Positions 24,001-26,691 of a stretch of 26,691 bases of DNA are shown in pieces (position 1 is the first letter of the stretch; every line of letters begins with the position of its first letter). Position numbers: made by a program. Origin of the DNA: Thermoplasmatota archaeon (lineage in GTDB: Archaea; Thermoplasmatota; Penumbrarchaeia; Penumbrarchaeales; Penumbrarchaeaceae); the NCBI GenBank assembly GCA_965234725.1, contig CBDDUX010000020.1, forward strand, positions 1-26,691. The letters run 5' to 3'.

Positions 24001-26691
24001 AGGACAAGGTTATCGCCCTTGCAGTAGTCCATTACGGGAACCACGGACCTTCTGATGAGTTCTCATTGGATACATTCCTCCATGTAATGGATAAGATGAA
24101 GAAGAGGTTTGATTTGGATCTCCCGGAAGTGGAAGCTCTCTATCCTCCCGACGACAAGTCTCCGTACAAGGACCTTGATGATAGAATGAACCGATCCATT
24201 GGAGATGCTGAAAAGATAATGGACAGGATCGATGGGTCCACGGCAATAGTAATGACAGGGGATATCTGCCATTACGGCAATTTCTACAAGAGGACCTCTG
24301 AAATGGAAGATTATCGGAAGCAGATCGATATTTGGGTTGAAGAATCCATGGACCTTCTCTATCACAAAGGGGACTATTTGAAATATCTTGGAGAAGTAAG
24401 GAAATCCGGAAATGATCAATTCAATCTTGCCATAATGGTAAAGCATCTTCTTGGTAAGGACCTTGATTATGAATTCTTCCAGAAGAAGATAACTGATTAT
24501 TCGAAGATACTGGATGAACCGCCTCCGGTCCTTGTGGCTTCTTACTTCTACGGTGTCTGGAAAAGATGAACACCAATTGGTGAATCACGATTCTAATCCC
24601 AAGACACACCTATGGGACCTACCGCTACACGATAGGTCATTGGCGCCCCGGATGGGAGGGGTGGGATCGTAAAATAATTTACGATAAGCAAGATCCAACC
24701 CCTGAGATGAAAAACGATTTCAATTACCTATCATTATTTTTCATCGTGTATGATCATCTTTAGCTGATAATTCCATAACTTTGTGGATCGACGAACGGAA
24801 TTATCAGCGGGAAAGGGGCGCGCTTAAAATCAAAATGAAATCAAGCGCCCCGGATGGGATTCGACGCAGCTAACCCGCTTTGCGGCTCAGCGCGCCTGGA
24901 ACCGCAGAATAGGTGTGGCGGTTCCAGGACCAAGGTTCGAATCCCAAGACACACCTATGGGACCTACCGCTACACGATAGGTCATTGGCGCCCCGGATGG
25001 GATTCGACGCAGCTAACCCGCTTTGCGGCTCAGCGCGCCTGGAACCGCAGAATAGGTGTGGCGGTTCCAGGACCAAGGTTCGAATCCCAAGACACACCTA
25101 TGGGACCTACCGCTACACGATAGGTCATTGGCGCCCCGGATGGGATTCGACGCAGCTAACCCGCTTTGCGGCTCAGCGCGCCTGGAACCGCAGAATAGGT
25201 GTGGCGGTTCCAGGACCAAGGTTCGAATCCCAAGACACACCTATGGGACCTACCGCTATGCGATAGGTCATTGGCGCCCCGGATGGGATTCGACGCAGCT
25301 AACCCGCTTTGCGGCTCAGCGCGCCTGGAACCGCAGAATAGGTGTGGCGGTTCCAGGACCAAGGTTCGAATCCCAAGACACACCTATGGGACCTACCGCT
25401 ATGCGATAGGTCATTGGCGCCCCGGATGGGATTCGAACCCATGTCAAAAGCTCCGCAAGCTCTCAGGATATCCAGGCTACCCTACCGGGGCACTCATTGA
25501 AAAGCGGGAGTTGCCCTAAAGTAGAGGATTATTAAAATCATTTGGCCCATGATTATATATTGGACGTCCAGACAAGTGGAAAATTAGACCATTTATTTGG
25601 ATATAATGCACGAGTCCGAGAAATGGCTTCAAAGGTCTTGTTGAACCAGGATTGATACCTTTGAGGGGTGTTATCCTTGGATATTGATCATTTCATTTCA
25701 GGTGATCAGCATCCTATTGATCGATTAATAGAAGAGGTCTTGAAGCAGGATAGAATAGATTCTGCTAAAAAAGATATTCATAAATCGTCGATCGAGAACA
25801 AAAAATTGCATAAAGGAAATTCTGCTGTTTCAAGATTACTTCAATTATTCATTGAAAATCCAGATAAACAATACACACCTAATGAGATCACAGAAGAACA
25901 CCTTCGAATGAAATCGGGGACATGTCGGGCTCGGTTATCAGAACTATTTGAAGCGGGATACATTCGGAAGGTCTGGGATCCAGTACATTCAAGGTATCAT
26001 TATGGACTTTATGAATTGAATGTATCTGAACCCCTCATACATCCAGGAACAGCTCCCAGGTGTTTTCACGGTTACAAGATTCATTTAAAAAGGCCTTTGT
26101 ATCGAATTCCTTCTGGAAAAGGGAAAAATAAGGTTGTCCAGTGTTCCCCGGATGAGTTTCGGGCTCGGTTATATTCATCTGAAGTTCGCCAATTTATCAA
26201 GTTATCTGAGAAAGACACAAATTTGAATCATGCATGGGTATTCGAGGGATTTTGGAGAAAGAGGAGAATATCTGTCACTGTCCAACATGGTAATTCAAGT
26301 CTTATAGAAATTTGGTGTAAGGCCACGGAAAAACCCCTCGATATCGATGATTTCATTGAATATAATCGGATGTGGAATTGTGCCATTCCTGATATATGGG
26401 TAGAATCGACTCCTCTTGTTGTTCAACTTGGAATCAACCATGATATTCCTCGGGTTCTGATCGATGGTGTTCAACGATTGAAAGTCCAGGCTCTTCATGA
26501 ATACATGGTCCAGGCTTATAATAAAGATGGAGTTCTTCGGATCGAATCCCATATTAACAAGGCCATGCCACAAACGGCAGTTATGAGGGCCCTACAAGGA
26601 ACTGTTCTTGAAGTTAACTCATTCTTCGACCGTGTAGATCTATCGGTACTAGAGAAGCAGAATAAACAGCAATTCGACCGGATCAAGGACC

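Follow-up and report, generated by a model that had tools for sequence, protein, structure and literature searches.

Tandem units that lie behind a tRNA gene in the same orientation, and whose terminal stretch repeats its 3' end exactly, CCA included, have been described at the tyrT and tyrV loci of Escherichia coli. At tyrV there are three 178-nt units annotated as rttR; the final 19 nt of tRNA-Tyr recur without change at the end of each, and the unit also contains part of this tail in inverted form. To our knowledge, no arrays of mixed cassette types are known for these repeats. The rtT RNA is processed from the operon transcript, according to a recent preprint (10.1101/2024.07.17.603846). 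Partial tRNA copies also bound tycheposons and genomic islands, which regenerate the target tRNA upon insertion; in tycheposons, newcomers insert at the tRNA and displace older elements outward, with degenerate remnants persisting. Integron attC cassettes and CTX-type IMEX phages carry no recombinase of their own, form ordered arrays and contain imperfect palindromes; in attC and in the CTX attP the stems are variable, certain features are conserved, and the single strand, once folded, imitates a double-stranded recombination site. A direct repeat beginning in the T-loop is a typical mark of the att sites used by tyrosine integrases (Islander paper, PMC4383910). Finally, the 3' ends of tRNAs are known targets of casposons, which produce a 14-bp duplication and can lie stacked in tandem (PMC4779613).

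In this work, we analyzed an array that follows tRNA-Arg(GCG) in an archaeal genome (G000); the window is the whole 26,691-nt stretch of DNA that was studied, and the features of the array are collected in Table 1. The preliminary description had reported a tandem repeat behind this tRNA, and the Tandem Repeats Finder output bears it out (TRF, 24845-25436, period 143, 4.1 copies, 99% matches). As had also been claimed, the units reproduce at their end the tRNA's final 22 nt, which reach from the T-loop to CCA on the minus strand; in unit 4, TT replaces CA. One 143-nt unit folds as a three-way junction at -78.2 kcal/mol (z = -6.9, with none of 200 shuffles as good), a stronger departure from random than the z = -5.5 obtained earlier.

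Table 1. Coordinates of the tRNA-Arg(GCG) gene, the cassettes behind it and the helices of the first unit
Feature	Position	Strand	Basis
tRNA-Arg(GCG), CCA encoded, array head	25415..25491	-	ARAGORN; Rfam tRNA 55.1 bits
Type-A cassette unit 1, 143 nt	25272..25414	-	fold and sequence
Unit 1, H0 hairpin	25390-25412	-	fold
Unit 1, P1	25366-25375 with 25284-25293	-	fold
Unit 1, P2	25324-25357	-	fold
Unit 1, P3	25294-25323	-	fold
Unit 1, tail copy equal to the last 22 nt of the tRNA	25272-25293	-	sequence
Type-A cassette unit 2, identical to unit 1	25129..25271	-	
Type-A cassette unit 3, 99% identity, H0 hairpin with two compensating changes	24986..25128	-	
Type-A cassette unit 4, tail end ...GGGGCGCTT, without CCA	24843..24985	-	
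Type-B cassette, 202 nt	24641..24842	-	orthologous cassette in G004
5' fragment of a further type-A cassette (H0 and start of the inverted T-arm), distal side eroded	24591..24640	-	BLAST

The four type-A units are followed by a cassette of a second type. In this type-B cassette, an opening hairpin pairs the end of the preceding tail with an inverted copy of it; a long A5/T5 hairpin comes next, and a terminal GGGGT...ACCCC hairpin abuts a 16-17-nt tail copy with CCA. The fragment beyond it is 94% identical to unit positions 1-50, and the copy in the congeneric metagenome-assembled genome (MAG) G004 is longer. The order at this tRNA is A-A-A-A-B-A' in our genome and A-A-B-A' in G004. The Logan contigs of four DNA runs break within the 143-nt repeat, and no piece spans the four assembled units.

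The repeat had been presented as an element of tRNA trailers. Its three helices, its position on the same strand 3' of tRNAs and its ending in the tail of the tRNA concerned all hold, and what changes is its singularity, as it is one of several cassette types that are stacked upon each other. At least one copy of the own tail lies within 700 nt downstream of 14 of the 40 ARAGORN tRNAs of this genome, and behind a tRNA that contains an intron, and that escaped ARAGORN, there is a fifteenth array. Among the array loci retrieved for analysis, 72 distinct cassettes were counted (26 of type A, 18 of type B and 28 others), all bounded by tail copies. In each array the tRNA remains intact and a second tail copy, composed of the 3' strand of the T-stem, the 3' strand of the acceptor and the discriminator, and in type A also of part of the T-loop, closes the far end of the cassette. 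Every cassette also contains an inverted copy of part of the tail. Perfect inverted repeats of at least 8 bp involving the tail were found at 16 of 40 junctions of cassette-bearing tRNAs; the corresponding values are 1 of 17 for tRNAs without cassettes and 1% for shuffles. Type A is found behind tRNAs of 19 anticodons, each copy with the matching tail and the matching inverted T-arm. The architecture resembles that of the E. coli repeats, yet those are confined to a single enterobacterial locus and do not form a family behind many tRNAs, and no sequence or model match relates type A to rtT, which is absent from the search results at E up to 10.

With moderate confidence, we interpret the 143-nt unit as a member of a family of site-specific cassettes that are non-autonomous and that, folded as hairpins, imitate the target in the tRNA gene; the possibility raised earlier as a caveat, that the repeat is a site at which small integrative elements recombine at the DNA level, is now the better-supported reading. 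Such cassettes (~100-220 nt, non-coding and non-autonomous) would insert site-specifically at the 3' ends of tRNA genes, sparing the tRNA and placing a second tail copy at their far end, and arrays would be built by repeated insertions together with local duplications, the newer cassettes presumably adjoining the tRNA and the oldest eroding at the far side. In a single strand or an excised circle, the direct and inverted copies may pair, as P1 in type A and as the tail-end hairpin in type B, and this pairing would restore, in double-stranded form, the T-arm or 3'-end sequence of the tRNA gene itself. The folded site could then be the substrate of a recombinase supplied in trans, like folded attC or the CTX phage attP, with P2 and P3, which have variable stems and conserved joining bases, as candidate protein-recognition features. 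The four tandem copies might result from repeated insertion or from unequal exchange between tail copies. Type A is probably also transcribed within the tRNA trailer, because no T-run lies between the tRNA and its own tail.

Resemblance to attC and to the folded CTX attP lies in the small units devoid of their own recombinase, in the ordered arrays and, in the predicted fold, in the rebuilding of the target duplex by P1. P1, formed by the inverted T-arm and the direct tail copy, covaries with the local tRNA: in the pair of columns 12/124, C-G occurs in 12 elements and U-A in 9, tracking the G or A of the T-loop of the tRNA in question. Unlike integron cassettes, the cassettes have as their repeat the array-specific tRNA tail and not a common core, the host is an archaeon, and the single-stranded intermediate is a proposed one; the head of an array is a tRNA gene, and no integrase lies within 8 kb of the arrays checked, nor any IntI-like gene beside them, though no search aimed at IntI-specific features was made. 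Tycheposons and genomic islands are kilobases long and have their own integrase, whereas these cassettes measure 100-220 nt, are non-coding and hairpin-structured, and hold the inverted tail copy.

The structure of type A was analyzed using an independently built alignment of 24 elements from 15 tRNA species, defined by anticodon. The pairing of P1 and P2 that had been described is retained (98.0% of cells paired versus 81.6% in shuffled alignments), and so is the compensatory change, with double changes in 12 of 21 pairs and 83 double-change cells versus 24.7 in shuffles, although the type-A copies are mutually related and these counts overstate their independence. None of 500 shuffles reached the covariation cell or score measures, and slid controls gave 27-51%. 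The strong excess of G:U over A:C reported before (29 versus 4) was not reproduced, our alignment giving 9 versus 6. P3 was misaligned by MAFFT and is visible only as a perfect hairpin within each single sequence. A 24-nt core of type A is identical across genera. When type-A copies behind one and the same tRNA are compared across species, compensatory changes are found in the stems there too, and these could reflect selection in the host, as for an RNA.

A serious rival, which we consider possible but unlikely, is that type A is a functional structured RNA similar to E. coli rtT: a co-transcribed 3' trailer that is freed by the enzymes processing tRNA ends, and that either acts itself or modulates tRNA maturation, the tail copy serving as a processing handle; it would recall the tyrT-operon repeats from which rtT RNA arises. 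The strong covariation of P1 and P2, accompanied by invariant joining bases, speaks for such an RNA, as do the better folding of the sense strand in 21 of 26 type-A elements, the retention of type A across the whole order and the precedent of the rttR units at tyrV. Co-transcription would also be expected to place type A first after the tRNA, as is the case in 20 of 26 elements, and to keep it free of T5 runs, which are archaeal terminator-like signals; such runs are lacking from 24 of 26 elements, a hand estimate from base composition being similar at ~82%, and a T5 run lies within 15 nt past the tail in 8 of the 20 first-position elements. The functional RNA leaves unexplained, however, the type-B and other cassettes, which share the same tail ends. 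Type B folds better on the strand opposite to the tRNA in 13 of 18 cases, and all 18 type-B cassettes have T5 runs, lying at the start, one of them directly after the tail. The loop motif ATCGTCAAT, common to the cassettes, was found in both orientations; taken together with the strand preference of each type, this is easier to reconcile with hairpins in DNA than with a single co-transcribed RNA. Also unexplained by an RNA function are the gene-bearing cassettes between tail copies, which encode a SAM methyltransferase (contig C28), an RHH and ParE pair (C89) and a 751-aa membrane protein (C38), the array on C38 that lacks a tRNA, and the different subtypes seen at one orthologous locus. The acceptor-like closing helix that end-processing enzymes would need, doubted in the preliminary description, is present in only 8 of 24 elements, compared with 53 of 518 mismatched controls, so that doubt was roughly right.

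Database searches bear on the same question. No Rfam family, including the tRNA-like, rtT and self-cleaving ribozyme families, matches type A at E up to 10, which counts against the RNA reading; as was claimed before, only tRNA passes in the segment 24300-25700 at this limit, and mascRNA, mir-35_2, sR55 and tmRNA appear there as sub-threshold noise. The model R1, built from our own 24-element alignment, finds 17 copies in this genome, 13 of which are listed at the places named when 13 had been counted. Matches were obtained in 23 of 23 genomes of the family and in 2 of 2 of the sister family, and in other families of Thermoplasmatota in 2 of 35 genomes with weak scores (E about 1e-6), the cassette copy number ranging from 2 to 25 in a genome; family-wide presence and, in practice, restriction to one order are thereby upheld. 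The type-A core gave no matches in IMG/VR, and hence no autonomous partner is known; a metagenome scan with the core yielded seven loci, alike in kind (six after a tRNA or tail copy and one unrelated), and likewise no such partner. No archaeal description of cassettes of this kind was found in the literature covered, which comprised sources other than subscription journals.

The number and type of cassettes vary among congeneric genomes, as would befit the mobile cassettes that we favour. Behind tRNA-Leu(GAG), there is one type-B cassette in G003, two in G000 and three in G004; at tRNA-Gly(GCC), an extra cassette adjoins the tRNA in G004, and the shared parts, the B cassette and the eroded start of an A, lie distally; and at tRNA-Leu(TAA), the flanks are the same, yet P2 and P3 belong to different subtypes. 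Neither excised or circular forms nor empty sites were observed, nor was any clean pair of filled and empty sites with alignable flanks.

Alternatively, the cassettes may be passive scars of larger integrase-borne elements that had inserted at tRNA T-loops, having lost their interiors and being functionless and multiplied only by unequal crossing-over. The type-A repeat does run from the T-loop to the discriminator or CCA with the tRNA left intact, like the att sites typical of tyrosine integrases; full-size integrase elements and gene-bearing segments between tail copies occur in the same genome, and stacked elements separated by partial tRNAs are known from tycheposons. Random deletions, however, would not yield the uniform sizes of type A (140-165 nt in 22 of 26), and neither the core identical across genera, nor the stem-preserving compensatory changes, nor the occurrence of a single family, its inverted copies matching, at 19 different tRNAs would be expected of scars, which we accordingly consider improbable.

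Integrase elements and a casposon use the same tRNA tails in this genome, and several candidates for the enzyme were considered. None of the seven matches to Phage_integrase (PF00589) lies beside a cassette array. The integrase module linked to tRNA-Thr was rejected as the cassette enzyme, being sporadic (2 of 23 family genomes). The Y1 HUH transposase of IS200/IS605-type elements and the PATE derivatives (PF01797) has no match in this genome, which is 97.65% complete. A route by reverse transcription was dismissed since the only reverse transcriptase of the genome is of the group II intron type; tail copies bear CCA in 7 of 30 cases where the gene lacks it, which is not evidence for an RNA intermediate because the gene of a congener encodes CCA.

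A further reading, that a Cas1-type casposase inserts the cassettes as miniature derivatives of casposons and duplicates the target site in doing so, is very improbable. Family 2 casposons share with them the target region at the tRNA 3' end, the polarity and the tandem stacking, and a casposase gene is located about 1.1 kb from tRNA-Leu(CAG), and casposon ends lie directly against tail copies. In all three of the ends observed, however, there are exactly 14 nt from the YGCA of the tail to the conserved GGGGTATTATACAA, which means that the casposon duplication takes in the final 4-7 nt of the tRNA together with trailer, a register matching the M. mazei pattern (PMC4779613). The cassette repeats, by contrast, span the 3' strand of the T-stem through the discriminator, and the cassettes lack terminal inverted repeats like those of the casposon. 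The earlier statement that casposase does not co-occur was corroborated, as the gene is found in 3 of 23 family genomes and in this one, versus cassettes in all. Mobilisation by casposase was ruled out on the grounds of register and co-occurrence. An apparent match between the cassette 5' end and a casposon end proved to be target sequence and not the terminus of a casposon. A casposon in complete form was not recovered, and the far end is missing from the G012 locus; scanning metagenomes with the casposase yielded no relative, and the 14-mer casposon end motif occurred in the relatives at control level, the two matches in G000 being noise.

Beyond the assignment of the unit to a cassette family, we put forward, tentatively and with doubt, that this archaeal order possesses an integron-like system in which tRNA 3' ends serve as insertion sites for tiny folded DNA cassettes, some of them gene-bearing; by imitating the T-arm or 3' end of the tRNA gene, the folded strand would allow a host recombinase to insert them, type A being also expressed as tRNA-trailer RNA. 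If true, this would add a new class to the non-autonomous mobile elements, and it would be the first mechanism of the folded-att kind known from archaea. Mobile cassettes would be among the smallest site-specific elements known, and tRNA 3' ends would act as cassette-acquisition sites in archaea, where toxin-antitoxin and methyltransferase cassettes stand beside empty ones. Should type A instead be an RNA, it would constitute a new order-wide class of structured RNA tied to tRNA transcription. At tRNA loci, the cassettes cause MAG assemblies to be inflated and broken, and they mark tRNA trailers that are overlooked by annotation pipelines; they also provide a second, much larger example of the architecture of the E. 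coli rtT repeats and could explain the origin of such repeats.

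The window derives from a 3.5-Mb metagenome-assembled genome (MAG) with a completeness of 97.65%, and the public runs that match it best are labelled as marine sediment. According to the preliminary description, the tRNA-Arg(GCG) gene is followed by tandem 143-nt units, each with three helices and ending in a copy of the 3' end (tail) of the tRNA. This observation was confirmed by the repeat itself, the anatomy of the unit, its predicted fold and an Rfam search at E-values up to 10, in which the tRNA was again the sole match. On the minus strand, each unit opens with a short hairpin (H0), followed by the T-arm in inverted copy, a pair of hairpins and finally a direct copy of the last 22 nt of the tRNA; a single unit folds into H0 and a three-way junction of helices P1, P2 and P3 (-78.2 kcal/mol, z = -6.9). 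The array extends past the reported span: unit 4 is followed by a second kind of cassette of 202 nt (type B), which likewise terminates in the tRNA-Arg(GCG) tail, and then by the first 50 nt of another unit of the 143-nt kind (type A). The orthologous locus of a congeneric genome (G004) reads A-A-B-A(partial) at 94% identity, with two tandem units versus four and a longer terminal fragment.

Features of the window (contig positions on the forward strand)
Feature	Position	Strand	Remarks
tRNA-Thr(TGT)	594-668	minus	Followed by an ORF starting MNKTETIKKRR, the same start as in the first gene of the integrase module; apparent copy of the integrated element, cut by contig start
DHH/DHHA1 phosphoesterase	19753-21147		
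Three adjacent ORFs	22102-23629	minus	Archaeal type IV pilin N-terminal domain (PF07790)
Tandem repeat	24845-25436		Period 143 nt, 4.1 copies, 99% matches (TRF)
tRNA-Arg(GCG)	25415-25491	minus	

Similar arrays occur across the genome under study (G000), where, for 14 of the 40 tRNAs predicted by ARAGORN, the tail recurs one to five times in the 700-800 nt that follow the gene. An additional array is headed by a 106-nt tRNA that ARAGORN did not detect (C2:90964-91069, L038:2465-2570, minus strand; 41.2 bits with the Rfam tRNA model) and that probably contains an intron. An internal array at C38:73500-77700, with at least seven copies of the tRNA-Ala tail and a gene-bearing segment of 3 kb, has no tRNA at its head and may have been split from its tRNA by rearrangement. 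Among the loci collected, 72 distinct cassettes were separated (26 of type A, 18 of type B and 28 others), and every one of them closes with a terminal hairpin directly against the tail's T-stem 3' strand. Some of the stretches separating tail copies encode proteins: an RHH and ParE pair between tRNA-Val tails, a membrane protein of 751 aa flanked by tRNA-Ala tails and, behind tRNA-Ala(GGC), a SAM-dependent methyltransferase. In longer type-A variants (L014:543-710, L016:254-428, L023:395-568 and L037:2052-2226), one or two additional hairpins separate P3 from the tail, so that hairpins behave as exchangeable modules. In one metagenome contig (L097, approximately 180-400), a type-A element is broken within P2 by unrelated sequence that runs on for several hundred bases.

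The type-A structure was assessed in a MAFFT alignment of 24 three-helix elements behind 15 tRNA species, defined by anticodon; the genomes are all MAGs. Because the copies are akin to each other, the counts overstate independence. RNAalifold recovered P1 and P2 with 21 pairs, 12 of which show compensatory changes. Paired cells amount to 98.0% versus 81.6% after shuffling and 27-51% in slid controls, and the 83 double-change cells (24.7 expected from shuffling) were reached by none of 500 shuffles. P3 was left unaligned by MAFFT, yet it forms a clean hairpin in every sequence. The helix-joining bases hardly vary, and genera share an identical 24-nt core. At one P1 pair, 12 sequences have C-G and 9 have U-A, matching the G or A in the T-loop of the local tRNA; therefore, the inverted copy tracks the local tRNA. 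The strong excess of G:U over A:C noted previously shrank to 9 versus 6 in the new alignment, which is why we place no weight on it. Only a subset of elements has an acceptor-like outer helix (8 of 24 versus 53 of 518 controls). The proposed confinement to one order held in practice: the model derived from the alignment matches all 23 genomes of the family and both genomes of the sister family, whereas among 35 other genomes of the phylum 2 gave weak matches. Copies number 2-25 per genome, with 17 in G000. Scanning one genome per species for an exact 22-mer gave 18 loci, 17 of them in MAGs with names of the form Thermoplasmat-; the remaining one, in a MAG titled Nitrospira, has the 22-mer alone, without the element.

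Several comparisons point to DNA units that are inserted and turn over. Type A was found behind tRNAs of 19 anticodons, and its presence at a given tRNA varies by genome, as at tRNA-Arg(TCG), where it is present in the congeneric G003 and absent from G000. At tRNA-Leu(GAG), the number of type-B cassettes is one in G003, two in G000 and three in G004. At tRNA-Gly(GCC), an additional A-type cassette adjoins the tRNA in G004, while farther from the tRNA the congeners have the B cassette and the eroded start of an A cassette in common; at tRNA-Leu(TAA), G000 and G004 share the same flanks and differ in P2 and P3 subtypes. Read by eye, the DNA past the last tail begins like a cassette and is then cut short in 8 or more of the 14 arrays. 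These broken distal starts fit arrays that grow at the tRNA and erode at the far end, which is unprotected.

Besides the direct tail copy, every cassette type has part of the tail as an inverted copy, close to its 5' side. The inverted part is the T-arm in type A, where it forms P1, and the tail end with the first trailer bases in type B and the others. Perfect inverted repeats of at least 8 bp involving the tail were found at 16 of 40 junctions at cassette-bearing tRNAs, versus 1 of 17 junctions at tRNAs lacking cassettes and 1% in shuffles. In a mechanism that we infer from cassette anatomy, an excised circle would hold one direct copy, and the helix formed between it and the inverted copy would match the duplex of the tRNA gene in sequence. 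Folded attC and CTX attP sites follow the same logic, in which the folded strand rebuilds a duplex. We propose that this mimicry of the tRNA-gene duplex explains why the inverted copy varies in step with the local tRNA.

Several candidate enzymes were considered. The casposon loci are G000 C59:1-2456 and C55:250-310, and L004 in another genome (G001:C183). A casposon encoding a 407-aa Cas1 and a 315-aa ORF without a Pfam family lies directly behind tRNA-Leu(CAG). At all three casposon ends seen, exactly 14 nt lie between the YGCA of a tRNA-Leu tail and the conserved GGGGTATTATACAA terminus, implying that 14 bp were duplicated; the same register is described for Methanosarcina mazei casposons (PMC4779613). 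The casposon of G000 appears to have landed within the first bases of a type-A cassette. As the cassette enzyme, casposase was rejected: its duplication register differs from the cassette repeats, and it occurs in only 3 of 23 family genomes, in line with the lack of co-occurrence described before. A three-gene module behind tRNA-Thr genes on C102 and C44 encodes a small DNA-binding-like protein, a 320-aa tyrosine integrase and a 184-aa protein, and the same integrated element seems to lie behind all three tRNA-Thr genes of G000. This module was also rejected, being found in only 2 of 23 family genomes. None of the remaining integrase matches of G000 lies at a cassette array, and the Y1 transposase is absent from this 97.65% complete genome, which has one IS110-family gene and one group II intron reverse transcriptase.

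Alternatively, type A could be an RNA co-transcribed with the tRNA. It occupies the first cassette position in 20 of 26 cases, T5 runs occur in just 2 of 26, and a T5 run often follows it; for these reasons co-transcription is probable. Its stem pairing survives sequence changes, even among copies at one tRNA across species. There is also a precedent in Escherichia coli: three units of 178 nt lie behind tyrV, all of them with exactly the last 19 nt of tRNA-Tyr at their end, and they are annotated as the small RNA RttR. The tRNA strand gives the better fold in 21 of 26 type-A cassettes (mean gain 5.1 kcal/mol), whereas in 13 of 18 type-B cassettes it is the opposite strand. The arrays are enriched for the loop motif ATCGTCAAT (9 versus 0.5 expected, the copies being related), which occurs in both orientations, and T5 runs are found in all type-B cassettes, one directly after the tail. 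Together, the strand preferences, the two-way motif and the type-B T5 runs are easier to reconcile with DNA hairpins than with one read-through RNA, and the two readings are not exclusive.

Such cassettes were not described in the literature searched, which did not cover subscription journals. The closest published parallels are tycheposons and other stacked elements that target tRNAs, tandem casposons, and the rtT repeats. In E. coli K-12 rtT (L092, 1286500-1287240), each 178-nt unit has an inverted tRNA-Tyr tail copy of approximately 10 nt and a degenerate direct T-arm, so its anatomy is nearer to the archaeal cassettes than the annotation suggests. The cassettes are best read as site-specific elements at tRNA genes, and they may turn out to be more than that.
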